Source: Lytechinus pictus
Taxonomy: Eukaryota
Reading direction: 5' to 3'
Length of the DNA stretch: 64,000 bases
NCBI RefSeq assembly: GCF_037042905.1
Contig: NC_087245.1
Span: forward strand, 16,680,001-16,744,000
The notes beneath the pieces are model-generated. The model made no database searches and was not told where the DNA came from. It saw only the letters and a list, made by a program, of their open reading frames with translations. This document shows positions 24,701 to 59,903 of this stretch, one piece after another. Both the position numbers and the translations under genes were made by a program. How positions within the stretch are numbered: position 1 is the first letter of the stretch; the number at the start of each line of letters is the position of its first letter.

Positions 24701-26206
24701 TACCTCGGTCACATTTGCTCTACAGCGGCCGTACGGCGAGTCAAAAACAGCCGTTTTATTCATTTTTGTCTCGCCTGCATAGCAGAGCGAGACTATAGGC
24801 GCCGCTTTTCCGACGGCGGCGGCGGCGGCGGCGTCAACATCAAATCTTAACCTAAGGTTAAGTTTTTGAAATGACATCATAACTTAGAAAGTATATAGAC
24901 CTAGTTCATGAAACTTGGACATAAGATTAATCAAGTATTACTGAACATCCTGCCTGAGTTTCAGGTCACATGACCAAGGTCAAAGGTCATTTAGGGTCAA
25001 TGAACTTAGACCATGTTGGGAAAATTATTTTCAAAATCTTAACCGAAGGTTAAGTTTTTGAAATGACATCATAACTTATAAAGTATATGGACCTAGTTCA
25101 TGAAACTTGGGCATAAGGTTAATCAAGTATTAGTGAACATCCTGCTCGAGTTTCAGGTCACGTGACCAAGGTCAAAGGTCATTTAGGGTCAATGAACTTT
25201 GGTCAGGTTGGGGGTATTTGTTGAATTACTATCATAACTTTGAAAATTTATGGATCTAGTCCATGAAACTTGGACATAAGGTTAATCAAGTATTAGTGAA
25301 CATCCTGCCTGAGTTTCAGGTCACATGACCAAGGTCAAAGGTCATTTAGGGTCAATGAACTTTGGCCAAGTTTGGGATATTTGTTGAATTACCATCATAA
25401 CTTTGAAAATGTATGGATTTAGTTCATGAAACTTGGACATAAGAGTAATCAAGTACCACTGAATATCCTGTGCGAGTTTCAGGTCACATGACCATGGTCA
25501 ATGGTCATTTAAGGTCAATGAACTTTGGCCGTGTTGGGGGTATATGTTAAATTACCATCCTAACTCTGAAAGTTTATGGATCTAGTTCATAAAACTTGGA
25601 CATAAGAGTAATCAAGTATCACTGAACATCCTGTACGAATTTCAGGTCACATGACCATGGTCAAAGGTCATTAAAGGTCAATTAACTTTGGCCGTGTTGG
25701 GGGTATTTGTTGAATTACCATCCTAACTCTGAAAGTTTATGGATCTAGTTCATAAAACTTGGGATATAAGAGTAATCAAGCATCACTGAACATCCCCTGT
25801 GAGTTTCAGGTCACAAAACCAAGTCAAAGGTCAGTTAAGGTAAATAAACTTAGGCCATGTTGGGGTAATTGTTGAAGTGCCATCATAACTTTGAAATTTT
25901 ATGGATAGAGTGAATGAAATGTGGACATGGGTGTAGTTGACAGTCTTAAGTCTCCGTTCAAATGTCATTTATGGTCAATGAACGTGGTATTATGTCATTA
26001 TATGAATGTTTTTTTTGTGAATGATTATTTTATAGTAGTTTTCAAAGTTAGCACTGCTGCTATATTAAATTGCGTGATGCAGGCGAGACTGCCAGAGGCG
26101 TTCCACTTGTTATTCAAACCACCTATATTTAGCTGGTACAAAAAATGTTAAAACGACTGTTTTCGACTCGCCGTACGGCCGCCGTAGAACAAATGTGTCC
26201 GAGGTA
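24701..26206. mobile_element. MITE with ~58-bp TIRs and TTA TSD (PIF/Harbinger-like), interrupted by a Helentron-like element
   Basis: TTA|TACCTCGGTCACATTTGCTCTAC..GCCGTACGGCGAGTC ... GACTCGCCGTACGGCCGCCGTAGAACAAATGTGTCCGAGGTA|TTA. Confidence 0.8.
24763..26111 (-). mobile_element. Second Helentron-like element with internal ~120-bp tandem repeats (reverse orientation)
   Basis: Reverse-complement homolog of 6644-8104: TTTTTGTCTCGCCTGCATAGCAGAGCGAGAC ... GCAGGCGAGACTGCCAGAGGCGTTCCACTTGTT. Confidence 0.75.
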
Positions 26207-27600: not shown

Positions 27601-29025
27601 ATTATGAAATCAGAAAAAACAAATGGAGACCATGGTGACAATACAAAAAAAAAAGATAATTAACGTCTAATATGTATTAATAACATTAATACTTCAATAA
27701 CTCTTTTTTCATAAGTATCGTGTAATGCTTTGTTGGGACAGTATATCGCATTTGAGATCTATATAGGCATTCGTCTGTATGAAAAGATAGCAAATATATA
27801 TATACATAATCAGACAGAAAAAAAAATGTCAGTTAAGTATTATGATTATGATAAAAGGATTAATCCACTGGCGTTTATCCCGGGGGTTGGGGCACATATC
27901 CCACCACTTTTCGGAGAAGGGGGGGGGGTGACTGTACAATCATCCCTGAATTTCTTCAAGAAAGAAACGATCATTTAAATAATCAAGTGTTTGATAGTAT
28001 TGTTAATGCGTGGATTCATCTTTAACGCTAATGTAATATCTAGGCCTACGGGGGGGGGGGGGTGAGGGTCACTTGGCTGCTGATTGCGCGTTCGCTGCGA
28101 ATATTTGAACCTGCGTAGAGCCAGATATAAACAAAAAGTATCGCAGGTTTTTCTAAGAAACTTCAACGACTTTTATATGGTTGTAACTTTGATCACAAAA
28201 CAATCAATGTATCGATAAATTGGAGTGAATGGGGGGCATTCTATCATAGCACCTGTGGGGGAAGAGGTGAATAGTTTGTTCGAATACATGCTTACCCAAT
28301 ACTTCAAGTGAAATGTACAATGATTTACTGATGAAATGTTAAAATCATGGTGGTACGATCCCCATGATGACATCCATGACGTTTTAAAACATTTAGGTTA
28401 GGTTTAAAAAAAATTGTTTGCAAATTTATTTATTTATTCATTTATTTAAAATGACCTCAATTGAGCGTAATATTGTAATTTAAAACATTGATTTCTTGTT
28501 GAACACAAATTCTGCCCTAAATTAAGGCTTTTGTTTAAAAGACTCGGTCACTCAGTAGGCTCACCAGCAGTGAAGCTAGGATTTTGTCAGCAGAGGAGCA
28601 CGGGTGGGGGGGGGGGGGGGGCTTGATATTTTGCAGGGGGTACCAAAATAGATTTATTCATCAAGTATTTATTATCAAGTACATATTAGCTTTATTCTCA
28701 CAAACATGATTAGGTATATGACAATGCCTAATTAAATAATGAGAGCGCAAAGCGCAAGCAATTTTTTTTTATATACCATGAAATTTCGAGCTGAAAATTA
28801 AACAATACGTAGGTGTAATTATGAACATGATTCGTATCTAATTATCATATTGAAAACATTCAGAAATGTGTAATATTCTGACATGAAAACGGGGCATTTA
28901 ATACATATTTTTTTCAATAAGCACAATCTGATTTTTTATATTCCAATCTGTAAACTGGACAATTTAATGACGTTTTGAAATAAAGAACACTAGTAGTTAT
29001 GGGAGAGACCTCATACCAATTTTGG

Positions 29026-29430
29026 TGACCTTTGACCTTTGACCGCATGACCTTTGACCCCAACTTCCGGTCACTGTTGACCCCGTGACCCCACCTTCCG
29101 GTCAATCATGACCTTTGACCTTTGGGTACGCGGTAAACAGGAAATTGGATAATGAAGCGCGGGAAGCGATTTTAATTGGATAATGGAGCGCGGGACGCGA
29201 TTTTAATTGGATAATGACTCCGCGTGGGGACGCCATCTTAATTGGATAATGAAGCGCGGGACGCGATTTTAATTGGATAATGACTCCGCGTGGGGACGCG
29301 ATTTTAATTGGATAATGACTCCGCGTGGGGACGCCATCTTAATTGGATATGAGTCCACGTAGGGACTCGATCTACAGGAAATTTAATTAACCTCCGCGTG
29401 GGGTGATCTCCCGCGCCCTCGCCTATAAAT
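29026..29430 (+). promoter_or_regulatory. Promoter-like terminal block of the element: TGACCTT repeats, CTTCCGG motifs, seven ATTGGAT (reverse CCAAT) boxes, TATAAAT; mirrored at ~34128-34532
   Basis: ATTGGAT at 29144, 29175, 29206, 29241, 29272, 29307 and 29342; TATAAAT at 29424. Function is inferred. Confidence 0.5.
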
Positions 29431-30569
29431 GATGGGAGAAACGTCACCATGAATCGGTATTACGACACAGTTACGCAACCACGGCCGTGATGTCATATCC
29501 CAGGGAATTACCCTTTACCCGGTATTGCACCACCGTGGCGCAATCGTCACGTATAGGATACGATGCACAAAACAGACGTATGATTTCTGCACAGTTTCCT
29601 ATCGAAAAAAGGATCTTTCTCCGCCTTCCAGCGGATATGTCAACCGCCTCGCATGACGTCACCGGCTACGTAAGCACCGTGATGTCATCCCAGGGAATTC
29701 CCCTTATCCCATCGTATCGGTATTGCACCACCGTGGCCAATCGTCACGTATAGGATACGATGCACGAAACAGACGTATGATTTCTACACAGTTTCCTATT
29801 GAAAAAATTATCTTTCTTTGCCTACCAGCAGATATGTCGAACCCGATATGTCAAGCGCCTCGCGGTTCACGAATCGATCACCCCACTCACGACCAACGCC
29901 CGTCATTGAACTTGGGATATCCTATTCAAGGTGAAAGCCGGCTCTCTCTGTCTCTTATTACAACAATTATTGGTAATCCAACATGTGATTATAATCCTGA
30001 TAACAGTGGCATCTCAAGCTCTACTCATTCCAGACTTTCCCCCATCAAAACTCTCTGACTTTTCCATACTGTTTTGTACATACCTCCATACTTTTCATTT
30101 TAACTCACATGACCTGCACGGCTCTCTGACCCGCAAAAGTATACTATATTGAAACCCGTAGACGACTCCTTTCAATCAACTTCATTCATCCGCAGTACAG
30201 ATGGTGATAACATGAAACACTATACAGTCAAGGATGATTCTTTATTATTACTCTCATTTATTCTATTCCATTTCAATGTAGATAGGTTCAATTAGTGTAT
30301 AAACAGCAGATTTTGATACAAAGGTAAAAATAATGTAAGATATGTTCTCAAATTACGTTGTCACAACAAAATAATTAACTGTTCATTGTTAATATTAAAG
30401 TGAAGTTCTCGTTTTTTTCTTTTCCTTCGCTTAACTTATTGGATTGTAACACATGTCTATGGATGGCATTCAGAAAATATGAACACAATGAAGTTCAAAC
30501 TGTCATTTATGCCCGCATTTATGTTGACGGCGTTTTCTTGGATTATTCGACAAGCTGATGTTTGTGCCT

Positions 30570-31219
30570 TTAGTTGTAGGTTCCATCTTCACCCTCCGTT
30601 TCTTCTCCACCATCATCATTATCGTCATCGTCACCTTGATACGGGAATAAACCATCGAATTGTGAACCATGCCTGGCTAACACTCTCTGTACGGCTTTCC
30701 GGAATTCCATGCCATTCTCTAATCTTTCCGTGAGATCGGACACGATTTCATGATTGATGTCAGCGTCTTCGAGGTACACGTTCTGCTGCAAGAACTGAGA
30801 GTACAGATCGAAAAAGATGCGTTTGACTGCCCACATTAGTTTCACGTGAGCCTTTGCTTTAGCGTCTTCTTCTTCCATTCCTTCTGAGATGTATTTCTGA
30901 TATTTTTCGTCTCTCAAGTCCTTGGTGGCCGTCATGGCTTGCTCTAACCATCCTCGATAAGCGAGGTTGTCTTCAGTTTCTTCCATGTTTGCTGTCATTG
31001 ACGATTCGTGTCCATCGCTTTCTGATACGCTCGTTTCGGAATCACCGTTGGATTCTTCAACTCTTTGCATTTGAGAGGATGGGTCGGATTCTTCATCTTC
31101 ACTCGTTTCTTCTCCAGTATCATGCTCAATTTGTTCATGCCTCTGCATGTTATATTTCCTACTAAAAGTTTATCGCATCGTGAACAAGCGTAACGGTTGG
31201 ACATATCCAATATATTCAT
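30570..31219 (-). pseudogene. Mirror copy of the zinc-finger gene with a 1-bp deletion inside the finger
   Basis: TTT at 31169-31171 versus AAAA at 32386-32389 splits the frame into ORFs 31267-30995 and 31148-30570; also one Q/P change. Confidence 0.75.
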
Positions 31220-31311
31220 GCTGACTCGATGATTATTTGTTGGGAAATGAAGAAAATTAACGTTCAAACTTGTAATTATACGTAATCATGAAACGCGCGC
31301 GAAGGTACTTT

Positions 31312-31727
31312 GATTCTTACGGATTTTTACGCATTCTTACGGATTCTTACTCATTCTTACGGATTCGTACGGATGTTTACTCATTCTTACTCATTCTTAC
31401 GGATTTTTACGCATTCTTACGGATTCTTACTCATTCTTACGGATTCTTACGGATGTTTACTCATTCTTACTCATTCTTACTCATTCTTACGGATTTTTTA
31501 CGGATTCTTACGGATGTTTACGGATTCTTACGGATGTTTACTCATTCTTACGGATTCTTACTCATTCTTACGGATTCTTACGGATGTTTACGGATTCTTA
31601 CGGATGTTTACTCATTCTTACTCATTCTTACGGATTCTTACGGATTTTTTACGGATTCTTACGGATGTTTATGGATTCTTACGGATGTTTACGGATTCTT
31701 ACGGATTCTTACTCATTCTTACGGATT
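31312..31727 (+). repeat. 10-bp minisatellite, left arm (GGATTCTTAC / TCATTCTTAC / GGATGTTTAC variants, about 41 units)
   Basis: Directly visible tandem array. Confidence 0.95.
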
Positions 31728-31787
31728 AATCAATGCTTTCATATAATCTCAAGGAAAATATGTTCATCCACGCTAGAATGACCCATG

Positions 31788-32245
31788 GAATCCGTAAGAA
31801 TGAGTAAGAATCCGTAAGAATGAGTAAGAATCCGTAAGAATCCGTAAACATCCGTAAGAATCCGTAAGAATGAGTAAGAATCCGTAAGAATGAGTAAGAA
31901 TCCGTAAGAATCCGTAAACATCCGTAAGAATCCGTAAAAAATCCGTAAGAATGAGTAAGAATGAGTAAGAATCCGTAAAAAATCCGTAAGAATCCGTAAG
32001 AATGAGTAAGAATCCGTAAGAATGAGTAAACATCCGTAAGAATCCGTAAACATCCGTAAGAATCCGTAAAAAATCCGTAAGAATGAGTAAGAATGAGTAA
32101 GAATGAGTAAACATCCGTAAGAATCCGTAAGAATGAGTAAGAATCCGTAAGAATGAGTAAGAATGAGTAAGAATGAGTAAACATCCGTACGAATCCGTAA
32201 GAATGAGTAAGAATCCGTAAGAATGCGTAAAAATCCGTAAGAATC
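31788..32245 (-). repeat. 10-bp minisatellite, right arm (inverted, about 45 units)
   Basis: GAATCCGTAA / GAATGAGTAA / ACATCCGTAA units, the reverse complements of the left-array units. Confidence 0.95.
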
Positions 32246-32337
32246 AAAGTACCTTCGCGCGCGTTTCATGATTACGTATAATTACAAGTTTGAACGTTAA
32301 TTTTCTTCATTTCCCAACAAATAATCATCGAGTCAGC

Positions 32338-32988
32338 ATGAATATATTGGATATGTCCAACCGTTACGCTTGTTCACGATGCGATAAAACTTTTAGTAGG
32401 AAATATAACATGCAGAGGCATGAACAAATTGAGCATGATACTGGAGAAGAAACGAGTGAAGATGAAGAATCCGACCCATCCTCTCAAATGCAAAGAGTTG
32501 AAGAATCCAACGGTGATTCCGAAACGAGCGTATCAGAAAGCGATGGACACGAATCGTCAATGACAGCAAACATGGAAGAAACTGAAGACAACCTCGCTTA
32601 TCGAGGATGGTTAGAGCAAGCCATGACGGCCACCAAGGACTTGAGAGACGAAAAATATCAGAAATACATCTCAGAAGGAATGGAAGAAGAAGACGCTAAA
32701 GCAAAGGCTCACGTGAAACTAATGTGGGCAGTCAAACGCATCTTTTTCGATCTGTACTCTCAGTTCTTGCAGCAGAACGTGTACCTCGAAGACGCTGACA
32801 TCAATCATGAAATCGTGTCCGATCTCACGGAAAGATTAGAGAATGGCATGGAATTCCGGAAAGCCGTACAGAGAGTGTTAGCCAGGCATGGTTCACAATT
32901 CGATGGTTTATTCCAGTATCAAGGTGACGATGACGATAATGATGATGGTGGAGAAGAAACGGAGGGTGAAGATGGAACCTACAACTAA
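32338..32988 (+). CDS. C2H2 zinc-finger protein with acidic tracts and a helical C-terminal domain (216 aa from the first ATG), carried by the palindromic element
   Basis: YACSRCDKTFSRKYNMQRHEQIEH fits C-x2-C-x3-F-x8-H-x4-H. E/S-rich linker, globular-looking segment LAYRGWLEQAM...VQRVLARH, D/E-rich tail. Intronless open frame. Confidence 0.82.
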   Translation: MNILDMSNRYACSRCDKTFSRKYNMQRHEQIEHDTGEETSEDEESDPSSQMQRVEESNGDSETSVSESDGHESSMTANMEETEDNLAYRGWLEQAMTATKDLRDEKYQKYISEGMEEEDAKAKAHVKLMWAVKRIFFDLYSQFLQQNVYLEDADINHEIVSDLTERLENGMEFRKAVQRVLARHGSQFDGLFQYQGDDDDNDDGGEETEGEDGTYN

Positions 32989-34639
32989 AGGCACAAACAT
33001 CAGCTTGTCGAATAATCCAAGAAAACGCCGTCAACATAAATGCGGGCATAAATGACAGTTTGAACTTCATTGTGTTCATATTTTCTGAATGCCATCCATA
33101 GACATGTGTTACAATCCAATAAGTTAAGCGAAGGAAAAGAAAAAAACGAGAACTTCACTTTAATATTAACAATGAACAGTTAATTATTTTGTTGTGACAA
33201 CGTAATTTGAGAACATATCTTACATTATTTTTACCTTTGTATCAAAATCTGCTGTTTATACACTAATTGAACCTATCTACATTGAAATGGAATAGAATAA
33301 ATGATAGTAATAATAAAGAATCATCCTTGACTGTATAGTGTTTCATGTTATCACCATCTGTACTGCGGATGAATGAAGTTGATTGAAAGGAGTCGTCTAC
33401 GGGTTTCAATATAGTATACTTTTGCGGGTCAGAGAGCCGTGCAGGTCATGTGAGTTAAAATGAAAAGTATGGAGGTATGTACAAAACAGTATGGAAAAGT
33501 CAGAGAGTTTTGATGGGGGAAAGTCTGGAATGAGTAGAGCTTGAGATGCCACTGTTATCAGGATTATAATCACATGTTGGATTACCAATAATTGTTGTAA
33601 TAAGAGACAGAGAGAGCCGGCTTTCACCTTGAATAGGATATCCCAAGTTCAATGACGGGCGTTGGTCGTGAGTGGGGTGATCGATTCGTGAACCGCGAGG
33701 CACTTGACATATCGGGTTCGACATATCTGCTGGTAGGCAAAGAAAGATAATTTTTTCAATAGGAAACTGTGTAGAAATCATACGTCTGTTTCGTGCATCG
33801 TATCCTATACGTGACGATTGGCCACGGTGGTGCAATACCGATACGATGGGATAAGGGGAATTCCCTGGGATGACATCACGGTGCTTACGTAGCCGGTGAC
33901 GTCATGCGAGGCGGTTGACATATCCGCTGGAAGGCGGAGAAAGATCCTTTTTTCGATAGGAAACTGTGCAGAAATCATACGTCTGTTTTGTGCATCGTAT
34001 CCTATACGTGACGATTGCGCCACGGTGGTGCAATACCGGGTAAAGGGTAATTCCCTGGGATATGACATCACGGCCGTGGTTGCGTAACTGTGTCGTAATA
34101 CCGATTCATGGTGACGTTTCTCCCATCATTTATAGGCGAGGGCGCGGGAGATCACCCCACGCGGAGGTTAATTAAATTTCCTGTAGATCGAGTCCCTACG
34201 TGGACTCATATCCAATTAAGATGGCGTCCCCACGCGGAGTCATTATCCAATTAAAATCGCGTCCCCACGCGGAGTCATTATCCAATTAAAATCGCGTCCC
34301 GCGCTTCATTATCCAATTAAGATGGCGTCCCCACGCGGAGTCATTATCCAATTAAAATCGCGTCCCGCGCTCCATTATCCAATTAAAATCGCTTCCCGCG
34401 CTTCATTATCCAATTTCCTGTTTACCGCGTACCCAAAGGTCAAAGGTCATGATTGACCGGAAGGTGGGGTCACGGGGTCAACAGTGACCGGAAGTTGGGG
34501 TCAAAGGTCATGCGGTCAAAGGTCAAAGGTCACCAAAATTGGTATGAGGTCTCTCCCATAACTACTAACACTGTATCTATTAAAAAAAAACAGTACAAGC
34601 ACGAGCTGCTTTTTTTTTTTCAGAAAGGAAACATTCTAA

Positions 34640-34830
34640 GGCGCGATAGCTCAATCGGTAGAGAGGGAATTCCGGTGACCTGGCTTAGATTCCCACTTGG
34701 TGCGCTTGTGCCCTTTGGTAAGGCATTTAAATCCACATTGAAGAACATTCAGAGAGGACCTTAAGCCGTCGGTCCTCTGGTTGCTTGCTTACAAGCATCC
34801 ATGCTTAAATGAGGTAAAAAATCCACCACC
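34640..34830 (+). mobile_element. tRNA-derived SINE, decayed
   Basis: GGCGCGATAGCTCAATCGGTAGAG head, degenerate B-box, body GTGCCCTTTGGTAAGGCA..ATCCACA..GAGGACCTTAAGCCGTCGGTCC. Confidence 0.6.
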
Positions 34831-35673
34831 AAATCATGAACATTATCAGTTTCTAATTAAACGATTAAAGCAAGCCCGAACCGTGAGTTGAAAATTTCGA
34901 ATAAAAAAAACGGAGCATTTTAAACATTGTCTTTCATGGCAGAAAAGGATATAATTATATCTCACTAAACAAAAATGTCAGCGTGAAGCACGAGCTAAAA
35001 ATGGGAGAGACTGAGAGCTAAAAATTGGATATGGTATCACATTTGTTTAATAATTAACTTGATGCGTATTTACCTAAACAATGCATGCGAGCGCGAGGGA
35101 CAAGCAAAAAACTTTGCATTTTCTAACCTGACAATAGCATGTCTTTTAACAGATAGCAAGCTGTTTATCTCATTTGTAAAAGAAAAAATGCCAGAGTGAA
35201 GCTCAGGTTGAAAATTTATTCGGCATCTTTTTGTAATCCTAAGTAGGGTGCCTATCTCGCTAAACTAAAAAAACCCCTCTAATATAGTACAGAATATCTT
35301 TGGAACCGATTATTTTGAAAACGGGATATTTTCAGCCCCATGTAATCCTTTCGGGCACTACACATGACCTTAGTCAGCGAAGGGGGGGGGGGGTCATGGT
35401 CCTGGGAAGCGGGGGTGCTGAAGCACCCCCAAGATTTGACTGGGGGTGCTGCGTGTATTATTCTTCATTTGCAGCACCCCCTGGGATTCTAATGTAAATT
35501 AATAAATGTTACATAAAAGTGCCCCCCTTTCTCGGGACCAAAGTGACCTTCATTTTTTAGTGAAAGTTTTTTTTTTGCTTGTCAAATTTACATCAGCGCC
35601 CCCAGTTAAAATATCGTTCCCAGGGCCCTGCCCAACCCCCGTGTATTTTTGTTTCTCTTGTACTCTAATCCTA

Positions 35674-41559: not shown

Positions 41560-43760
41560 CGGTAGGCAAACGGATCTTTCAGTCAAATCACTCTTTTTCA
41601 AGTATTTGTAAGAATGCATTAAATTTATGTCTGAGAAACGTTATCCTGTGAATTATGAACCTACTGGCACTTCATTATAAAAAAATGTAAGAGCCTACTG
41701 GACTAGCCCCTTCTGTTGCAATAGAACGGAACGCCCATTCAGATTTTTTTTTTATTCTATGTATTTGTAAGAATGTTAATTTCTGTCTGGGAGATGGCGT
41801 CCTGTGAATTATGAGCCTACTGTAAGAGAACGGAACGCACAGTCAGATTGTTTGTGGTTTAAATAGTGTAAGAATATTAACTTCTGTATGGGAGATGGCG
41901 TCCTGTGAATTACGACCCTACTTGGCTTGTCCAGTATGATTATGAGCCTACTACCCCTTAAATAGAAAGACCGAACACCCAGTCAGACCTTTCGAATGTT
42001 ATATCAAATGTTTGTAAGAATGTTGTTACTATCTGCGAGATATGATCTCCTGCGAGTTATGAGCCTACTGGGCTTGCCCTTGAAATAGAAGAATGGAATG
42101 CCCGGTCATGTTTGGTATTTTTAAGTATTTTTAAGAATATAAATTTCTGTCTGGAAGACGGTGTCTTGTGAATGATGTGCCTACTCGGCCTGTCCCTTAA
42201 ACTATAGTAAAACGGAACGCCCAGTCAGATTGTTTCGTATGAAATATGAAATTATGTTTTCATATAATGAAATGAATTATGAATTCATTTATCAACTAAG
42301 AAGGAAAGTTGAGCATTGACTTCGAACCACCTGTTGCTTAATAATGGAGGCATGAATCGTTTTTCTTTTCTTGCTTAATAATGCTCAACTTTAAATTTCT
42401 ATAACTTCGTTATTGATATAGGATTTTTTTGAAATTTCAAATATTTTTTGGGTGAATTAATTAAACATATTGAGTCATTTATTATTTCCAACACGGGGAT
42501 ATCCTTTTAACCTGTAGGCGACCAACTCGTACATTCAAATCACATTTTCAAGAATTTGTGAGAGTATAGCTAATTTTTGTCTTAGAACACCATGTAAGTA
42601 ATCAGAATAATGAACAGAATCCCCAGTTAGATTATATATATATATATATATATATTATATATGTATGTATATATATACACATATATATAATTTATATGTA
42701 ACTTAAATGTTTGTAAGAACGTTTTTAATTTCTCCCTGGGAGATGCTGTCCTGTGAATGGTCGGCGTACTGGGCTAGCCCCTTAAACTATTGGAGAACAG
42801 AACACCCAGTTAGATTGTGTTGTGTTTTAATTATTTGTAGGAATTTCACTTTCTGTCTGGAATATGGTGTCCTGTGAAAAATGATCCTAATGTAATGGGA
42901 TCTTCCCTTAGACTGAAGGAGAACAGAGCGGCCGGTCTGATTGTTTTGTATTTTAAGTATTTTGTAAGAATAATGTTAATTTCTCTCTGGGAGATGGTGT
43001 CCTGTGAATAATGAGCCCATTGGGCTTCTCCCTTAAACTGTAGGAGAACGGAACGCCCAGTCAGATTGTTTTGTATTTTTAAGTATTTGTAAAAATATTG
43101 TTAATTTCTGTCTGGGAGATGGCATCCTGTGAATGATGAGCCTACTGGGCTTGTCCCTTAAACTGTAGGAGAACGGAACGCCCAGTCAGATTGTTTTGTA
43201 TTTTTAAGTATTTGTAAAAATATTGTTAATTTCTGTCTGGGAGATGGCATCCTGTGAATGATGAGCCTACTGGGCTTGTCCCTTAAACTGTAGGAGAACG
43301 GAACGCCCAGTCAGATTGTTTTGTATTTTTAAGTATTTGTAAAAATATTGTTAATTTCTGTCTGGGAGATGGCATCCTGTGAATGATGAGCCTACTGGGC
43401 TTGTCCCTTAAAATGTAGGAGAACGGAACGCCCAGTCAGATTGTTTTGTATTTTTAAGTATTGGTAAGAATAATGTTAATTTTTGTCTGGAAGATGGTGT
43501 CCTGTGAATGATGAGCCTACTAGACTTGTCCCTTAAACTGTAGGAGAACGGAACGCCCAGTCAGATCGTTTTGTATTCTTAAGTATTTGTAAGAATATTA
43601 ATTTTTGTCTGGGAGATGGCATCCTGTGAATGATGAGCCTACTGGACTTGTCCCTTAAACTGTAGGAGAACGGAACGCCCAGTCAGATCGTTTTGTATTC
43701 TTAAGTATTTGTAAGAATATTAATTTTTGTCTGGGAGATGGTGTCCTGTGAATGATGAGC
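41560..43760. repeat. 122-125-bp minisatellite array (diverged at left, homogeneous at right); duplicated at ~49420-51520
   Basis: Monomer TCTGTCTGGGAGATGGCATCCTGTGAATGATGAGCCTACTGGGCTTGTCCCTTAAACTGTAGGAGAACGGAACGCCCAGTCAGA plus AT-rich spacer; equivalent positions at 43021, 43146, 43271, 43396, 43521 and 43643. Confidence 0.9.
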
Positions 43761-44536
43761 CTATTGTTTGTCTATGTTTTTCATGTTTGTAATAACTGTA
43801 TTTTTTTTGTCTGTGAAATGATGTCCAGTAGATCAGGAGCCTACAGGGCTTGCCCCTTAAAGGGGTTTTCCATGTTGAAAATAATATAACACTGGAAATT
43901 TCATCAAAAATGGACAAGGAATAAACAAAGTTATCGAAATGTCTAGATATATTTTTATAAATTTATATGATATTTGTTCTCAAAAAATAAAAAACAGGAT
44001 TAATTACTGCTTTTATGTGATTTGAAAGATCGTCTTTGCTGAAATTTGATTTGTAACAAGGGGACATGTTGAAATATGAAATAATTATGATTTCATGTAC
44101 TGAAAACAATATGAATTCTTGAATAAGAAAGAAAGGAGAGACCCGACATCATCGACGAGCCGAATGTTTATTTTATGGCGGGATGAATCCATTTTTTTCA
44201 CAGAATATTCAGTAACTTCGTTTTTTTTATATCAGATTTTGATGAAAATTTGAGCGTTTTTTTTTTCTTAATGAGTTATACTTTATTTACTCTTATTTAT
44301 ACTTATTTCAGCCCGAGGAATTCCATTTTACCAGTATATTCCTATATATATTCTGCTTCGGCACATGGAGTAAAATAATCACAAATAGTTTAGAAAATGC
44401 CGTAGAAATGAAATCGTAGATTTTAAAAGGAGCATAGCTCTCAAAAAGAGTGTGACTTTACCTTTCATTTTTTTAGAGCTATGCTCCTTTTAAAATCTAC
44501 GATTTTATTTCTACGGCATTTTATTAACTATTTGTG

Positions 44537-44574
<38 letters not shown>

Positions 44575-45800
44575 TTGTATATACTTATGTATAGGGACCA
44601 GTTTCATACATGAATTACAACTTTTGTAACTTTGCCATTATGGCAACTACCATGCTAACAGGGCTCAGCAGCCGATCACAATCAATTGTTACCACAGTTG
44701 TAACTCAAATCATTGTTTAATTATTTGTAAGAATGTAGTTGACATCTGTCTGGGAGATGGTATCCTGTGAATTATGAGCCAACAGGGCTTGTCCCTTAAA
44801 CTGTAAGAGAACGGAACGCCCAGTCAGATTGTTTTGTATTTTTTAGTATTTGTAAAAATATTGTTAATTTCTGTCTGGGAGATGGCATCCTGTGAATGAT
44901 GAGCCTACTGGACTTGTCCCTTAAACTGTAGGAGAACGGAACGCCCAGTCAGATCGTTTTGTATTCTTAAGTATTTGTAAGAATATTAATTTTTGTCTGG
45001 GAGATGGTGTCCTGTGAATGATGAGCCTATTGTTTGTCTATGTTTTTCATGTTTGTAATAACTGTATTTTTTTTGTCTGTGAAATGATGTCCAGTGAATC
45101 AGGAGCCTACAGGGCTTGCCCCTTAAAGGGGTTTCCATGTTGAAAATAATATAACACTGGAAATTTCATCAAAAATGGACAAGGAATAAACAAAGTTATC
45201 GAAATGTCTAGATATATTTTTATAAATTTATATGATATTTGTTCTCAAAAAATTAAAAACAGGATTAATTACTGCTTTTATGTGATTTGAAAGATCGTCT
45301 TTGCTGAAATTTGATTTGTAACAAGGGGACATGTTGAAATATGAAATAATTATGATTTCATGTACTGAAAACAATATGAATTCTTGAATAAGAAAGAAAG
45401 GAGAGACCCGACATCATCGACGAGCCGAATGTTTATTTTATGGCGGGATGAATCCATTTTTTTCACAGAATATTCAGTAACTTCGTTTTTTTTATATCAG
45501 ATTTTGATGAAAATTTGAGCGTTTTTTTTTCTTAATGAGTTATACTTTATTTACTCTTATTTATACTTATTTCAGCCCGAGGAATTCCATTTTACCAGTA
45601 TATTCCTATATATATTCTGCTTCGGCACATGGAGTAAAATAATCACAAATAGTTTAGAAAATGCCGTAGAAATGAAATCGTAGATTTTAAAAGGAGCATA
45701 GCTCTCAAAAAGAGTGTGACTTTACCTTTCATTTTTTTAGAGCTATGCTCCTTTTAAAATCTACGATTTTATTTCTACGGCATTTTCTTAACTATTTGTG

Positions 45801-45838
<38 letters not shown>

Positions 45839-48800
45839 TTGTATATACTTATGTATAGGGACCAGTTTCATACATGAATTACAACTTTTGTAACTTTGCC
45901 ATTATGGCAACTACCATGCTAACAGGGCTCAGCAGCCGATCACAATCAATTGTTACCACAGTTGTAACTCAAATCATTGTTTAATTATTTGTAAGAATGT
46001 AGTTGACATCTGTCTGGGAGATGGTATCCTGTGAATTATGAGCCAACAGGGCTTGTCCCTTAAACTGTAAGAGAACGGAACGCCCAGTCAGATTGCTTTG
46101 TATTTTTAAGTATTTGTAAAAATATTGTTAATTTCTGTCTGGGAGATGGCATCCTGTGAATGATGAGCCTACTGGACTTGTCCCTTAAACTGTAGGAGAA
46201 CGGAACGCCCAGTCAGATCGTTTTGTATTCTTAAGTATTTGTAAGAATATTAATTTTTGTCTGGGAGATGGTGTCCTGTGAATGATGAGCCTATTGTTTG
46301 TCTATGTTTTTCATGTTTGTAATAACTGTATTGTTTTTGTCTGTGAAATGATGTCCAGTGAATCAGGAGCCTACAGGGCTTGCCCCTTAAAGGGGTTTTC
46401 CATGTTGAAAATAATATAACACTGGAAATTTCATCAAAAATGGACAAGGAATAAACAAAGTTATCGAAATGTCTAGATATATTTTTATAAATTTATATGA
46501 TATTTGTTCTCAAAAAATTAAAAACAGGATTAATTACTGCTTTTATGTGATTTGAAAGATCGTCTTTGCTGAAATTTGATTTGTAACAAGGGGACATGTT
46601 GAAATATGAAATAATTATGATTTCATGTACTGAAAACAATATGAATTCTTGAAATAAGAAAGAAAGGAGAGACCCGACATCATCGACGAGCCGAATGTTT
46701 ATTTTATGGCGGGATGAATCCATTTTTTTCACAGAATATTCAGTAACTTCGTTTTTTTTATATCAGATTTTGATGAAAATTTGAGCGTTTTTTTTTCTTA
46801 ATGAGTTATACTTTATTTACTCTTATTTATACTTATTTCAGCCCGAGGAATTCCATTTTACCAGTATATTCCTATATATATTCTGCTTCGGCACATGGAG
46901 TAAAATAATCACAAATAGTTTAGAAAATGCCGTAGAAATGAAATCGTAGATTTTAAAAGGAGCATAGCTCTCAAAAAGAGTGTGACTTTACCTTTCATTT
47001 TTTTAGAGCTATGCTCCTTTTAAAATCTACGATTTTATTTCTACGGCATTTTCTTAACTATCTGTGATTATATATATATATATATATATGTATATATTTA
47101 CCTTGTATATACTTATGTATAGGGACCAGTTTCATACATGAATTACAACTTTTGTAACTTTGCCATTATGGCAACTACCATGCTAACAGGGCTCAGCAGC
47201 CGATCACAATCAATTGTTACCACAGTTGTAACTCAAATCATTGTTTAATTATTTGTAAGAATGTAGTTGACATCTGTCTGGGAGATGGTATCCTGTGAAT
47301 TATGAGCCAACAGGGCTTGTCCCTTAAACTGTAAGAGAACGGAACGCCCAGTCAGATTGTTTTGTATTTTTAAGTATTTGTAAAAATATTGTTAATTTCT
47401 GTCTGGGAGATGGCATCCTGTGAATGATGAGCCTACTGGACTTGTCCCTTAAACTGTAGGAGAACGGAACGCCCAGTCAGATCGTTTTGTATTCTTAAGT
47501 ATTTGTAAGAATATTAATTTTTGTCTGGGAGATGGTGTCCTGTGAATGATGAGCCTATTGTTTGTCTATGTTTTTCATGTTTGTAATAACTGTATTGTTT
47601 TTGTCTGTGAAATGATGTCCAGTGAATCAGGAGCCTACAGGGCTTGCCCCTTAAAGGGGTTTTCCATGTTGAAAATAATATAACACTGGAAATTTCATCA
47701 AAAATGGACAAGGAATAAACAAAGTTATCGAAATGTCTAGATATATTTTTATAAATTTATATGATATTTGTTCTCAAAAAATTAAAAACAGGATTAATTA
47801 CTGCTTTTATGTGATTTGAAAGATCGTCTTTGCTGAAATTTGATTTGTAACAAGGGGACATGTTGAAATATGAAATAATTATGATTTCATGTACTGAAAA
47901 CAATATGAATTCTTGAAATAAGAAAGAAAGGAGAGACCCGACATCATCGACGAGCCGAATGTTTATTTTATGGCGGGATGAATCCATTTTTTTCACAGAA
48001 TATTCAGTAACTTCGTTTTTTTTATATCAGATTTTGATGAAAATTTGAGCGTTTTTTTTTCTTAATGAGTTATACTTTATTTACTCTTATTTATACTTAT
48101 TTCAGCACGAGGAATTCCATTTTACCAGTATATTCCTATATATATTCTGCTTCGGCACATGGAGTAAAATAATCACAAATAGTTTAGAAAATGCCGTAGA
48201 AATGAAATCGTAGATTTTAAAAGGAGCATAGCTCTCAAAAAGAGTGTGACTTTACCTTTCATTTTTTTAGAGCTATGCTCCTTTTAAAATCTACGATTTT
48301 ATTTCTACGGCATTTTCTTAACTATCTGTGATTATATATATATATATATATATGTATATATTTACCTTGTATATACTTATGTATAGGGACCAGTTTCATA
48401 CATGAATTACAACTTTTGTAACTTTGCCATTATGGCAACTACCATGCTAACAGGGCTCAGCAGCCGATCACAATCAATTGTTACCACAGTTGTAACTCAA
48501 ATCATTGTTTAATTATTTGTAAGAATGTAGTTGACATCTGTCTGGGAGATGGTATCCTGTGAATTATGAGCCAACAGGGCTTGTCCCTTAAACTGTAAGA
48601 GAACGGAACGCCCAGTCAGATTGTTTTGTATTTTTAAGTATTTGTAAAAATATTGTTAATTTCTGTCTGGGAGATGGCATCCTGTGAATGATGAGCCTAC
48701 TGGACTTGTCCCTTAAACTGTAGGAGAACGGAACACCCAGTCAGATCGTTTTGTATTCTTAAGTATTTGTAAGAATATTAATTTTTGTCTGGGAGATGGT

Positions 48801-51800
48801 GTCCTGTGAATGATGAGCCTATTGTTTGTCTATGTTTTTCATGTTTGTAATAACTGTATTGTTTTTGTCTGTGAAATGATGTCCAGTGAATCAGGAGCCT
48901 ACAGGGCTTGCCCCTTAAAGGGGTTTTCCATGTTGAAAATAATATAACACTGGAAATTTCATCAAAAATGGACAAGGAATAAACAAAGTTATCGAAATGT
49001 CTAGATATATTTTTATAAATTTATATGATATTTGTTCTCAAAAAATAAAAAACAGGATTAATTACTGCTTTTATGTGATTTGAAAGATCGTCTTTGCTGA
49101 AATTTGATTTGTAACAAGGGGACATGTTGAAATATGAAATAATTATGATTTCATGTACTGAAAACAATATGAATTCTTGAATAAGAAAGAAAGGAGAGAC
49201 CCGACATCATCGACGAGCCGAATGTTTATTTTATGGCGGGATGAATCCATTTTTTTCACAGAATATTCAGTAACTTCGTTTTTTTTATATCAGATTTTGA
49301 TGAAAATTTGAGCGTTTTTTTTTTCTTAATGAGTTATACTTTATTTACTCTTATTTATACTTATTTCAGCCCGAGGAATTCCATTTTACCAGTATATTCC
49401 TATATATATTCTGCTTTATTACGACCCTACTTGGCTTGTCCAGTATGATTATGAGCCTACTACCCCTTAAATAGAAAGACCGAACACCCAGTCAGACCTT
49501 TCGAATGTTATATCAAATGTTTGTAAGAATGTTGTTACTATCTGCGAGATATGATCTCCTGCGAGTTATGAGCCTACTGGGCTTGCCCTTGAAATAGAAG
49601 AATGGAATGCCCGGTCATGTTTGGTATTTTTAAGTATTTTTAAGAATATAAATTTCTGTCTGGAAGACGGTGTCTTGTGAATGATGTGCCTACTCGGCCT
49701 GTCCCTTAAACTATAGTAAAACGGAACGCCCAGTCAGATTGTTTCGTATGAAATATGAAATTATGTTTTCATATAATGAAATGAATTATGAATTCATTTA
49801 TCAACTAAGAAGGAAAGTTGAGCATTGACTTCGAACCACCTGTTGCTTAATAATGGAGGCATGAATCGTTTTTCTTTTCTTGCTTAATAATGCTCAACTT
49901 TAAATTTCTATAACTTCGTTATTGATATAGGATTTTTTTGAAATTTCAAATATTTTTTGGGTGAATTAATTAAACATATTGAGTCATTTATTATTTCCAA
50001 CACGGGGATATCCTTTTAACCTGTAGGCGACCAACTCGTACATTCAAATCACATTTTCAAGAATTTGTGAGAGTATAGCTAATTTTTGTCTTAGAACACC
50101 ATGTAAGTAATCAGAATAATGAACAGAATCCCCAGTTAGATTATATATATATATATATATATATTATATATGTATGTATATATATACACATATATATAAT
50201 TTATATGTAACTTAAATGTTTGTAAGAACGTTTTTAATTTCTCCCTGGGAGATGCTGTCCTGTGAATGGTCGGCGTACTGGGCTAGCCCCTTAAACTATT
50301 GGAGAACAGAACACCCAGTTAGATTGTGTTGTGTTTTAATTATTTGTAGGAATTTCACTTTCTGTCTGGAATATGGTGTCCTGTGAAAAATGATCCTAAT
50401 GTAATGGGATCTTCCCTTAGACTGAAGGAGAACAGAGCGGCCGGTCTGATTGTTTTGTATTTTAAGTATTTTGTAAGAATAATGTTAATTTCTCTCTGGG
50501 AGATGGTGTCCTGTGAATAATGAGCCCATTGGGCTTCTCCCTTAAACTGTAGGAGAACGGAACGCCCAGTCAGATTGTTTTGTATTTTTAAGTATTTGTA
50601 AAAATATTGTTAATTTCTGTCTGGGAGATGGCATCCTGTGAATGATGAGCCTACTGGGCTTGTCCCTTAAACTGTAGGAGAACGGAACGCCCAGTCAGAT
50701 TGTTTTGTATTTTTAAGTATTTGTAAAAATATTGTTAATTTCTGTCTGGGAGATGGCATCCTGTGAATGATGAGCCTACTGGGCTTGTCCCTTAAACTGT
50801 AGGAGAACGGAACGCCCAGTCAGATTGTTTTGTATTTTTAAGTATTTGTAAAAATATTGTTAATTTCTGTCTGGGAGATGGCATCCTGTGAATGATGAGC
50901 CTACTGGGCTTGTCCCTTAAAATGTAGGAGAACGGAACGCCCAGTCAGATTGTTTTGTATTTTTAAGTATTGGTAAGAATAATGTTAATTTTTGTCTGGG
51001 AGATGGCATCCTGTGAATGATGAGCCTACTGGGCTTGTCCCTTAAACTGTAGGAGAACGGAACGCCCAGTCAGATTGTTTTGTATTTTTAAGTATTTGTA
51101 AAAATATTGTTAATTTCTGTCTGGGAGATGGCATCCTGTGAATGATGAGCCTACTGGGCTTGTCCCTTAAAATGTAGGAGAACGGAACGCCCAGTCAGAT
51201 TGTTTTGTATTTTTAAGTATTGGTAAGAATAATGTTAATTTTTGTCTGGAAGATGGTGTCCTGTGAATGATGAGCCTACTGGACTTGTCCCTTAAACTGT
51301 AGGAGAACGGAACGCCCAGTCAGATCGTTTTGTATTCTTAAGTATTTGTAAGAATATTAATTTTTGTCTGGGAGATGGCATCCTGTGAATGATGAGCCTA
51401 CTGGACTTGTCCCTTAAACTGTAGGAGAACGGAACGCCCAGTCAGATCGTTTTGTATTCTTAAGTATTTGTAAGAATATTAATTTTTGTCTGGGAGATGG
51501 TGTCCTGTGAATGATGAGCCTATTGTTTGTCTATGTTTTTCATGTTTGTAATAACTGTATTGTTTTTGTCTGTGAAATGATGTCCAGTAGATCAGGAGCC
51601 TACAGGGCTTGCCCCTTAAAGGGGTTTTCCATGTTGAAAATAATATAACACTGGAAATTTCATCAAAAATGGACAAGGAATAAACAAAGTTATCGAAATG
51701 TCTAGATATATTTTTATAAATTTATATGATATTTGTTCTCAAAAAATTAAAAACAGGATTAATTACTGCTTTTATGTGATTTGAAAGATCGTCTTTGCTG

Positions 51801-52295
51801 AAATTTGATTTGTAACAAGGGGACATGTTGAAATATGAAATAATTATGATTTCATGTACTGAAAACAATATGAATTCTTGAATAAGAAAGAAAGGAGAGA
51901 CCCGACATCATCGACGAGCCGAATGTTTATTTTATGGCGGGATGAATCCATTTTTTTCACAGAATATTCAGTAACTTCGTTTTTTTTATATCAGATTTTG
52001 ATGAAAATTTGAGCGTTTTTTTTTTCTTAATGAGTTATACTTTATTTACTCTTATTTATACTTATTTCAGCCCGAGGAATTCCATTTTACCAGTATATTC
52101 CTATATATATTCTGCTTCGGCACATGGAGTAAAATAATCACAAATAGTTTAGAAAATGCCGTAGAAATGAAATCGTAGATTTTAAAAGGAGCATAGCTCT
52201 CAAAAAGAGTGTGACTTTACCTTTCATTTTTTTAGAGCTATGCTCCTTTTAAAATCTACGATTTTATTTCTACGGCATTTTCTTAACTATTTGTG

Positions 52296-52333
<38 letters not shown>

Positions 52334-55300
52334 TTGTATATACTTATGTATAGGGACCAGTTTCATACATGAATTACAACTTTTGTAACTTTGCCATTAT
52401 GGCAACTACCATGCTAACAGGGCTCAGCAGCCGATCACAATCAATTGTTACCACAGTTGTAACTCAAATCATTGTTTAATTATTTGTAAGAATGTAGTTG
52501 ACATCTGTCTGGGAGATGGTATCCTGTGAATTATGAGCCAACAGGGCTTGTCCCTTAAACTGTAAGAGAACGGAACGCCCAGTCAGATTGCTTTGTATTT
52601 TTAAGTATTTGTAAAAATATTGTTAATTTCTGTCTGGGAGATGGCATCCTGTGAATGATGAGCCTACTGGACTTGTCCCTTAAACTGTAGGAGAACGGAA
52701 CGCCCAGTCAGATCGTTTTGTATTCTTAAGTATTTGTAAGAATATTAATTTTTGTCTGGGAGATGGTGTCCTGTGAATGATGAGCCTATTGTTTGTCTAT
52801 GTTTTTCATGTTTGTAATAACTGTATTGTTTTTGTCTGTGAAATGATGTCCAGTGAATCAGGAGCCTACAGGGCTTGCCCCTTAAAGGGGTTTTCCATGT
52901 TGAAAATAATATAACACTGGAAATTTCATCAAAAATGGACAAGGAATAAACAAAGTTATCGAAATGTCTAGATATATTTTTATAAATTTATATGATATTT
53001 GTTCTCAAAAAATAAAAAACAGGATTAATTACTGCTTTTATGTGATTTGAAAGATCGTCTTTGCTGAAATTTGATTTGTAACAAGGGGACATGTTGAAAT
53101 ATGAAATAATTATGATTTCATGTACTGAAAACAATATGAATTCTTGAAATAAGAAAGAAAGGAGAGACCCGACATCATCGACGAGCCGAATGTTTATTTT
53201 ATGGCGGGATGAATCCATTTTTTTCACAGAATATTCAGTAACTTCGTTTTTTTTATATCAGATTTTGATGAAAATTTGAGCGTTTTTTTTTCTTAATGAG
53301 TTATACTTTATTTACTCTTATTTATACTTATTTCAGCCCGAGGAATTCCATTTAACCAGTATATTCCTATATATATTCTGCTTCGGCACATGGAGTAAAA
53401 TAATCACAAATAGTTTAGAAAATGCCGTAGAAATGAAATCGTAGATTTTAAAAGGAGCATAGCTCTCAAAAAGAGTGTGACTTTACCTTTCATTTTTTTA
53501 GAGCTATGCTCCTTTTAAAATCTACGATTTTATTTCTACGGCATTTTCTTAACTATCTGTGATTATATATATATATATATATATGTATATATTTACCTTG
53601 TATATACTTATGTATAGGGACCAGTTTCATACATGAATTACAACTTTTGTAACTTTGCCATTATGGCAACTACCATGCTAACAGGGCTCAGCAGCCGATC
53701 ACAATCAATTGTTACCACAGTTGTAACTCAAATCATTGTTTAATTATTTGTAAGAATGTAGTTGACATCTGTCTGGGAGATGGTATCCTGTGAATTATGA
53801 GCCAACAGGGCTTGTCCCTTAAACTGTAAGAGAACGGAACGCCCAGTCAGATTGTTTTGTATTTTTAAGTATTTGTAAAAATATTGTTAATTTCTGTCTG
53901 GGAGATGGCATCCTGTGAATGATGAGCCTACTGGACTTGTCCCTTAAACTGTAGAAGAACGGAACGCCCAGTCAGATCGTTTTGTATTCTTAAGTATTTG
54001 TAAGAATATTAATTTTTGTCTGGGAGATGGTGTCCTGTGAATGATGAGCCTATTGTTTGTCTATGTTTTTCATGTTTGTAATAACTGTATTGTTTTTGTC
54101 TGTGAAATGATGTCCAGTGAATCAGGAGCCTACAGGGCTTGCCCCTTAAAGGGGTTTTCCATGTTGAAAATAATATAACACTGGAAATTTCATCAAAAAT
54201 GGACAAGGAATAAACAAAGTTATCGAAATGTCTAGATATATTTTTATAAATTTATATGATATTTGTTCTCAAAAAATAAAAAACAGGATTAATTACTGCT
54301 TTTATGTGATTTGAAAGATCGTCTTTGCTGAAATTTGATTTGTAACAAGGGGACATGTTGAAATATGAAATAATTATGATTTCATGTACTGAAAACAATA
54401 TGAATTCTTGAATAAGAAAGAAAGGAGAGACCCGACATCATCGACGAGCCGAATGTTTATTTTATGGCGGGATGAATCCATTTTTTTCACAGAATATTCA
54501 GTAACTTCGTTTTTTTTATATTAGATTTTGATGAAAATTTGAGCGTTTTTTTTTTCTTAATGAGTTATACTTTATTTACTCTTATTTATACTTATTTCAG
54601 CCCGAGGAATTCCATTTTACCAGTATATTCCTATATATATTCTGCTTCGGCACATGGAGTAAAATAATCACAAATAGTTTAGAAAATGCCGTAGAAATGA
54701 AATCGTAGATTTTAAAAGGAGCATAGCTCTCAAAAAGAGTGTGACTTTACCTTTCATTTTTTTAGAGCTATGCTCCTTTTAAAATCTACGATTTTATTTC
54801 TACGGCATTTTCTTAACTATCTGTGATTATATATATATATATATATATGTATATATTTACCTTGTATATACTTATGTATAGGGACCAGTTTCATACATGA
54901 ATTACAACTTTTGTAACTTTGCCATTATGGCAACTACCATGCTAACAGGGCTCAGCAGCCGATCACAATCAATTGTTACCACAGTTGTAACTCAAATCAT
55001 TGTTTAATTATTTGTAAGAATGTAGTTGACATCTGTCTGGGAGATGGTATCCTGTGAATTATGAGCCAACAGGGCTTGTCCCTTAAACTGTAAGAGAACG
55101 GAACGCCCAGTCAGATTGTTTTGTATTTTTAAGTATTTGTAAAAATATTGTTAATTTCTGTCTGGGAGATGGCATCCTGTGAATGATGAGCCTACTGGAC
55201 TTGTCCCTTAAACTGTAGGAGAACGGAACACCCAGTCAGATCGTTTTGTATTCTTAAGTATTTGTAAGAATATTAATTTTTGTCTGGGAGATGGTGTCCT

Positions 55301-59872: not shown

Positions 59873-59903
<31 letters not shown>

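Follow-up and report, generated by a model that had tools for sequence, protein, structure and literature searches.

A multicopy family of foldback Polinton derivatives with mirrored zinc-finger cassettes in the genome of Lytechinus pictus

The stretch of Lytechinus pictus DNA analysed here (hereafter the window: 64,000 nt, RefSeq assembly GCF_037042905.1, contig NC_087245.1, positions 16,680,001 to 16,744,000 of the forward strand) contains, at window positions 28992..34566, a 5,575-bp palindromic element with ends AGTAGT...ACTACT and a zinc-finger gene in each arm. The element belongs to a multicopy foldback family that derives from Polintons (also termed Mavericks) and is non-autonomous. 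As far as sequence comparison goes, it keeps about 445 bp of a Polinton end, i.e. the (AGT)2 terminus, subterminal repeats and an inward-facing promoter-like TATA, and its interior consists of two mirror cassettes, each an ACGGAT-type array of ~10-bp period and then the gene, that are missing from the related Polinton with which the ends could be compared in full. The window copy is a recent insertion. With all its parts taken jointly, including those below on how the copies integrate, how their arms stay alike and what the gene product may do, this is considered the best explanation of the data with a good deal of confidence, the separate parts being of unequal firmness.

Architecture of the element

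At the left junction AACACT is followed by AGTAGTTATGGG (28986-28997), and at the right one CCCATAACTACT is followed by AACACT (34555-34572), the two copies of the 6-bp target-site duplication occupying 28986..28991 and 34567..34572. From the left end inwards, the first feature is a terminal module (28992..29436, + strand) common to the Polinton described in the next section, with four TGACCTTTGACC motifs (29026-29120), subterminal tandem repeats of 31/35 bp delimited with the program TRF (29143-29373) and an inward-facing TATAAA (about 29420-29430); its mirror is the right terminal module (34122..34566, - strand). There follows a direct duplication of ~165 bp inside the left arm (29485..29843, + strand; arm positions 494-654 versus 686-852, 86% identity), mirrored in the right arm. 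The left-arm copy of the zinc-finger gene (30570..31219, - strand) is frameshifted near codon 17, being split between open reading frames (ORFs) at 30570-31148 and 30995-31219; its match spans residues 17-216 and has one TAA. Between it and its right-arm counterpart lie a minisatellite of 41 units of the 10-bp sequence GATTCTTACG (31312..31727), a unique central spacer of 60 nt that is common to the family (31728..31787), and the right 10-bp minisatellite with 45 units (31788..32245). The latter is directly upstream of the intact gene (32338..32988, + strand), whose 216-aa product has a C2H2 finger at residues 10-33 and a helical domain at ~86-189.

The outer arms (28991-31171 and 32387-34567; 2,181 nt) were reported as 100% complementary, the exact count being 3 mismatches in 2,180 nt. 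Alignment over their whole length (1-2736 versus 1-2728) gives an identity of 98.6%; the 25 mismatches and 6 gap openings fall almost entirely within the inner minisatellites. A preliminary description of this DNA had reported the AGT-type ends, the 6-bp repeats, the inverted arms (given there as ~2.75 kb, here ~2.74 kb) and the 60-nt centre, all of which were re-read in the sequence. Its term ‘fully palindromic’ suits the outer arms, but not the inner ~550 nt, which are only ~90% alike, nor the frameshifted left gene copy. Long arms with internal tandem repeats around a short middle domain are the structure of a foldback element. The repeat content is far from that expected by chance: TGACCTTTGACC occurs 14 times in the window as against 0.01 expected, with 8 of the 14 inside the element, and TACGGAT or its complement ATCCGTA occurs 54 times in the element as against ~0.7. 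As a side observation, the DR1-like motif GGTCAAAGGTCA, of which there are four per end of the element, has two further occurrences near 7.6-7.9 kb (7566-7886), and several units of a 163-bp tandem repeat with 7 units at 24854-25935 hold it, in four exact copies in total.

The pPolB, integrase, ATPase, protease and capsid genes that an autonomous Polinton has of its own are not found in the element. When the 13 frames of the related Polinton were compared by tblastn, nothing better than E 0.03 was seen in the element, as the earlier claim of an element devoid of Polinton core ORFs would lead one to expect, and no match at E≤1e-3 in the whole window. The claim that the zinc-finger gene is the only gene carried also stands, in the sense that its ORF is the sole one with a Pfam family; the three other ORFs of the arm have none.

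Ends shared with a complete Polinton

A 17,227-bp Polinton with target-site duplication GATCCA is present at C21:5789358-5806584 (numbers prefixed C, L and P are used for contigs, loci and protein records, respectively). Its inverted ends run to ~420-497 nt, and one foldback subfamily, L031, has exactly its 25-nt terminus. Pfam matches within it are to DNA_pol_B_2 (99 bits), rve (42.5 bits, with a chromodomain) and Pox_A32 (34 bits). With its pPolB, rve and Pox_A32 it is a full-length element with the same termini, as the preliminary description had proposed to look for, and its common terminal sequence agrees with the assignment made there of a non-autonomous Polinton/Maverick derivative with a 6-bp duplication. 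Over ~400-450 nt the window element is 87-92% identical to both of its ends. Alignment of these two ends with the window element, L031 and L032 shows the same order of parts in all of them, from the terminus by way of the TGACCTTTGACC motifs and the 31/35-bp repeats to the TATAAA. AGT-type inverted ends, 6-bp duplications and shared terminal sequence are what place the element among non-autonomous Polintons/Mavericks.

The similarity stops just past the TATAAA, at about element position 445. Beyond this point sensitive BLASTN gave no match between the element and the C21 Polinton, the zinc-finger gene matches that Polinton at E 0.59 at best by tblastn, and TACGGAT is found there 0 times as against ~2 expected. 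Since the C21 Polinton, the only related one read from end to end, lacks the remaining ~2.3 kb of each arm with its gene and minisatellite, the element did not arise from it by copy-back of one end or by internal deletion. These were the two origins from a Polinton parent that had been put forward, and with only ~445 bp in common neither is upheld; the associated question of whether gene and minisatellite lie at one or both ends of the parent meets with their absence from both ends of this one.

The C21 Polinton has relatives. At two more loci pPolB is 94-97% identical to its own, with a family terminus ~4 kb from the one on C6, at ~1.30-1.317 Mb, and termini bracketing the one on C17. Pairs of termini are found not only at foldback spacing but also 12-49 kb apart, including pairs 16-49 kb apart at C17:12792967-12809161, C6:21765963-21792011, C5:48689700-48727774 and C8:29707589-29756382. 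At the three related Polinton loci the termini are of variants also found in the foldback subfamilies. A separate observation is that, at the left end of the C21 Polinton, the outermost frame (L051:783-1475, + strand) has a PC4-like domain (PF02229, 28.4 bits). This is a single-strand-DNA-binding domain and is of interest with regard to a single-stranded replication stage.

An old and propagating family

The first 609 nt of the element match at 72 places in the 812-Mb genome, most of which form pairs of opposite strand with a spacing of 2.8-5.8 kb, and a degenerate form of the 25-nt terminus occurs 102 times (58 forward, 44 reverse), with 0 occurrences of the reversed control. Complete copies, the window's included, have perfect and mutually different 6-bp duplications in 11 cases out of 11 (AACACT, TATATA, GTCGTG, TAGGAG, ACACAG, TACAAT, ATTTAT, TGGCGT, AAATTG, GTTATA and TTCTTA), and most of the 11 are palindromic almost to the centre, so that the palindromic copies with differing duplications anticipated in the preliminary description do exist. 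Because 6-bp duplications are present at every copy and the terminal sequence is shared, integration was very probably performed in trans by the rve integrase of the end-sharing Polinton lineage.

The zinc-finger gene gives a similar picture. The genome has 319 candidate matches to it, the best 150 of which comprise 51 head-to-head pairs, 2 convergent pairs and 44 singles, with 126 of these 150 being stop-free. Two-gene pairs number at least 53 among the matches listed, nine of them in one tandem array on C17. Outside this array 14 element loci were examined, and in 12 of them the 60-nt spacer is at the centre (96-100% identity over 52-60 nt); it was not found in the other two, L034 and L043. 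The same spacer in 12 of 14 loci implies that the hairpin form arose once, and then transposed and diversified into subfamilies, which are 88-99.8% alike over the gene and 900 nt of its 3′ flank. The notion of a single defective genome is hard to square with at least 53 two-gene pairs among the 150 matches listed, or with a spacer so widely retained; judged on its sequences, this is an old, propagating foldback family and not a one-off snap-back of a Polinton end.

Some copies have had further histories. At C17:8134560-8181441 (L044-L048) truncated foldback units form a tandem array with a period of ~4.07-4.10 kb and at least 9 head-to-head gene pairs, most units being preceded by an identical 12-nt junction; here amplification of a foldback element has produced an array like that of a satellite. 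L032 (C5:41084010-41089619) and L033 (C5:41109360-41114921) are identical, ~25 kb apart and with the same flank and duplication, and so represent a segmental duplication and not two insertions. In sequencing runs under two other organism codes (X3 and X10-X16), 10-45% of the sampled 31-mers of the stretch were found, from which it follows that near-identical parts of the family exist beyond the label of the source organism.

The zinc-finger protein and packaging ATPases

The 216-aa protein has, in order, one C2H2 finger, a disordered acidic linker, a helical domain and an acidic tail. The finger (C-x2-C-x12-H-x4-H, residues 10-33) matches PF00096 with 25.2 bits. In common with it, 13 homologues at 41-75% identity have the finger, a variable acidic linker and a conserved domain of ~110 aa, the closest named ones being Lytechinus pictus proteins. 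The AlphaFold2 model has a mean predicted local-distance difference test (pLDDT) of 59.6, with the conserved domain being helical and at pLDDT 64-89. A homodimer prediction for the helical domain, run without controls, scored 0.00, and a protein atlas yielded generic C2H2 clusters only.

In a profile search against 1.84 billion representatives there were 2,043 matches at E≤0.001, a good many being generic fingers; 221 are retained at 1e-10 and 39 at 1e-30. Among them are three longer proteins (P0116, P0108 and P0102) with ATPase-like N-terminal parts. In P0116 the N-terminal half matches Pox_A32 (27.7 bits, cutoff 22.8) and is 38% identical to the 247-aa ATPase of the C21 Polinton (E 3e-41), and residues 257-417 align with the family profile over 161 columns with an hhalign probability of 98.7% (E 2.8e-16). 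The same architecture of ATPase plus module is seen in P0164 and P0165. P0108 reaches 20.8 bits for Pox_A32, which is under the cutoff, and P0102, without a Pfam match, has ATPase motifs by eye. When P0116 was compared with the source genome, 19 of the 40 matches listed covered the ATPase part only, 21 the module only, and none both: the ATPase matches end at ~214 of P0116, and the module matches are elsewhere, several as head-to-head pairs. The family profile has an hhalign probability of <1% with either of the two frames downstream of the C21 ATPase. The module is thus tied to Polinton packaging ATPases in other records, and in this genome travels alone in foldbacks.

In a distinct observation, distant homologues of the module, at 28% identity to P0116, also form head-to-head pairs, here 1.0-1.5 kb apart (C14:13691446/13692859, C6:1966477/1967788, C18:7173395/7174917 and C2:42182489/42183523), which suggests further foldback families with a gene for the zinc-finger module.

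Given that the finger-helical module is fused to ATPases elsewhere and is missing from the ATPase matches listed for this genome, the protein may be an adaptor or regulator directed to the packaging or replication machinery of a helper Polinton. It might bind DNA, with the array upstream of its gene or the subterminal repeats as possible targets. The preliminary description had suggested that the element may be a satellite retaining just origins and a regulator, a conjecture that the ATPase connection of the gene strengthens. A sizeable chance, not far short of even, is nevertheless accorded to the gene being an ordinary transcription regulator or passenger, with the ATPase fusions being read-through of neighbouring genes. 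Its single finger is weak, its bit score coinciding with the Pfam cutoff, and Foldseek comparison with PDB and viral models left no structural match at E≤0.001. The contigs from which the fused forms derive are short, 1.5-2.5 kb, and the presumed helper in this genome is without the module. Selection on the gene within the source genome is weakly shown, dN/dS (the ratio of nonsynonymous to synonymous substitution rates) between subfamilies being 0.22-0.56 from 3-14 changes per class (rows for one L042 arm, L042a, were ignored as an artefact of a stop in the alignment). RNA coverage is thin: over the gene it is ~0-3x (6% of two runs) and, the locus being a palindrome, of ambiguous strand, and over the subterminal repeats alone it rises to 5-7x, with a strand pattern that, given a stranded library of the common kind, would fit transcription directed inwards. 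What stands in the way of the passenger interpretation is that at least three records (P0116, P0164 and P0165) are single open frames with Pox_A32 and the module, that even as a neighbouring gene the module would sit inside Polinton-like elements, and that gene and upstream array have been kept together in palindromic loci with different ends.

These last are two loci, L053 and L054, with a 71%-identical gene. L054 (C20:8817011-8822079) has AGTAGTATATATAGG ends, the target-site duplication CACACT, arms of 2,377 nt at 99.9% identity and its genes directed inwards, and L053 is a 6.1-kb palindrome whose ends are not delimited. As in the window element, each gene of both loci is closely preceded by an ACGGAT-type array that has a sub-period of ~10 bp. 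The only other place where the L054 terminus was found is C19:4647614-4662238 (L055, L056), a 14,625-bp element with AGTAGT ends, the duplication ATGGCG and 3,446-bp inverted ends at 100% identity; these ends have ~810 nt in common with the L054 foldback family. The C19 element has an ORF for a 179-aa multi-C2H2 protein and a 1,340-aa frame containing a Vsr-endonuclease-like stretch (E 5e-4) and having a weak likeness to the Polinton pPolB frame; no Pfam polymerase match was found in this frame. By tblastn with the zinc-finger gene, the finger alone matches the C19 element (E 0.001).

Arms that evolve together

Among 11 two-armed elements there are 10 in which each arm is closer to its own partner (99.8-100% identity) than to any other arm; between elements the identity is 88-99.8%. 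The correspondence goes beyond substitutions. With the window copy as reference, the two arms have the same pattern of large indels in six of nine copies (L031, L032, L035, L036, L040 and L041), among these indels being a 1.4-kb deletion in L041 and differences of 0.3-0.5 kb in L031, L035 and L040. In the 53 gene pairs, 45 are open on both arms and 3 have the same single stop on both, with 5, the window's among them, being unequal. Several pairs are cut at the same residue on both arms: in L041 both arms cover residues 1-155, and at C5:48960847/48962060 both cover 82-216. Subfamilies that differ in terminus variant have the same variant on both ends.

With substitutions, stops, truncations and indels of 0.3-1.4 kb all co-located on both arms, the arms are probably not independent, one having repeatedly templated the other within a lineage. 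The most economical route would be through single-stranded DNA folding back on itself, or else through copy-back in the course of protein-primed replication.

Templating could also take place without any replicative hairpin, by chromosomal arm-to-arm gene conversion or cruciform-associated repair at resident copies. This is the less favoured possibility, though one with a real minority claim. Arm identity of 99.8-100% is what intrachromosomal conversion gives, and the inner parts of the arms near the centre are more diverged. Stabilised palindromes show more divergence near the centre. The copies that depart from mirror symmetry also count here, and against a replicative hairpin. Indels are asymmetric in three of the nine copies (L038, L042 and L043), and there is a one-armed form, L039. 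A further case is L042 (C17:29772646-29778828), whose arms are 94.7% alike and whose two ends are different terminus variants, flanked by a perfect GTTATA duplication. It is a chimeric copy, each arm being closer to arms of other elements, and having integrated with unlike arms it implies that arm identity is neither needed for integration nor restored at every transposition. However, deletions of 0.3-1.4 kb with equal end points on both arms are hard to attribute to short-tract conversion, as are the symmetric gene truncations. The occurrence of a subfamily's terminus variant at both of its ends also speaks against conversion alone.

Genuineness and affiliation of the insertion

Both flanks of the element are parts of a dispersed repeat (364 and 452 candidates at a first look). 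There are 10 paralogues in which the similarity to both flanks reaches the junction, and in every one of them the left and right flank matches overlap by exactly 6 bp, e.g. C2:29428079-29428463 with 29428458-29428599, from which it follows that these paralogous sites are uninterrupted, with the 6 bp corresponding to AACACT present once. The element is accordingly a real insertion and not an artefact of assembly. The earlier statement that joining of the flanks restores a host repeat is correct with respect to these paralogues; for the window sequence at ~159-180 named as the resembling repeat, there is only a ~20-nt likeness, with no BLAST hit.

That the window copy might instead be a foldback transposon of another superfamily, which makes 6-bp duplications and has Polinton-like ends by chance, is very improbable: the likeness extends far beyond AGT, being collinear over ~445 nt with both ends of an element encoding pPolB, integrase and ATPase, and the terminus variants of subfamilies have their counterparts at three related Polinton loci. 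Two points count against the explanation given here: of the supposed helper, one copy (that on C21) was examined whole, and a read spanning flank, both arms and flank was absent from the short contigs and short RNA reads used. A fold-back assembly artefact, with a read joined to its own reverse complement, would account for that absence and for outer arms with so few differences, but is barely credible for a precise insertion, with a 6-bp duplication, into a repeat with 10 uninterrupted paralogues, with at least 53 gene pairs and complete copies at other loci having different duplications, and with arms that differ by indels and a frameshift near the centre.

Other features of the window

Directly to the right of the insertion, at 34674-34860, is a short repeat with very high depth in all four runs, about 110-125x in RNA reads, where the element itself has 0-7x. 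A transcribed short interspersed repeat of high abundance is its probable identity; neither ARAGORN nor Rfam gave a match here or elsewhere in the window. Over the 20 kb from 42001 to 62000 the GC skew stays positive (0.08-0.21) and the AT skew is negative.

Significance

To our knowledge no experiment has yet demonstrated how Polintons/Mavericks replicate and move, and the ‘self-synthesising’ model, in which a single strand folds, is a proposal. The present family is an abundant, young and small derivative, and the genome that contains it also contains an identifiable helper with the same ends. The family's mirrored indels and stops provide both a compact natural substrate and a sequence signature with which that model can be tested. 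It extends foldback architecture from the Mutator and P superfamilies to Polintons. A zinc-finger/helical module that is fused to an ATPase in some records and stands alone in parasites, beside a conserved array, is in addition a candidate protein-site pair. No description of Polinton-derived foldback families was found in full-text searches aimed at Polinton derivatives, Polinton foldbacks, sea-urchin foldbacks and Lytechinus Polintons, with Repbase and the founding papers of 2006-2007 lying outside what was covered.

A bolder and rather unlikely extension is that the foldbacks are satellite-like hyperparasites of an endogenous Polinton virus, with the palindrome adapted to protein-primed strand-displacement replication. 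The displaced strand would then snap into a full hairpin, and mirrored substitutions and kilobase indels would result from this. The gene would be a detached DNA-recognition tail of the ATPase, binding the ACGGAT array and so recruiting the tail-less ATPase of the helper to a 5.6-kb mini-genome. If true, such palindromes would be a general by-product or parasite of Polinton replication.

Comparison with known systems

Mavericks have (AGT)n or (AG)n terminal motifs, and in vertebrates terminal inverted repeats of 46-1,447 bp, as given in PMC8097293 (Barreat and Katzourakis 2021). The (AGT)2//(ACT)2 ends, perfect 6-bp duplications and terminal repeat module of a few hundred bp of the present family are like theirs. 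Unlike them, the element is without core genes, is one third of the usual size and is almost wholly palindromic with 2.7-kb arms, and, unlike the C21 Polinton, it has the cassette of array and gene. It also far outnumbers its presumed helper, with at least 53 gene pairs to 3 close pPolB loci.

Known foldback elements, e.g. Drosophila FB, Galileo and Tetris, belong mainly to Mutator with P-superfamily exceptions, according to PMC4079207. Features shared with the present family are long arms with tandem repeats, a short middle, mostly non-autonomous and rearranged forms, and tandem amplification into arrays, here represented by the C17 cluster. FB, Galileo and Tetris are cut-and-paste elements with 7-10-bp duplications, of the Mutator or P superfamilies; PMC4079207 also mentions a sea urchin foldback (Liebermann et al. 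1983). The window family differs from the FB type in its 6-bp duplications in 11 of 11 copies, its Polinton ends and the open, conserved gene in each arm. With the sea urchin TU elements, compared by description only, it has in common the host group, the long inverted repeats that contain domains of tandem repeats, and the existence of modular variants. The TU elements of Liebermann and colleagues reportedly have 8-bp duplications and 15-bp outer repeats.

A different type of parallel is with copy-back or snap-back defective genomes and panhandle replication of the adenovirus type, where mirror arms surround a small unique loop. Mirror arms, a small loop, ends resembling the origins of a protein-primed replicon and mirrored changes are all seen in the foldback elements. 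Unlike copy-back defective genomes, these are integrated and inherited, their hairpin arose once and spread, and the part that copies a helper end is only ~445 bp. Staphylococcal pathogenicity islands are satellites that have their own small terminase as a packaging specificity factor. As an analogy only, the foldback elements resemble them in being small parasites with a gene that is related to packaging machinery of the helper's class.

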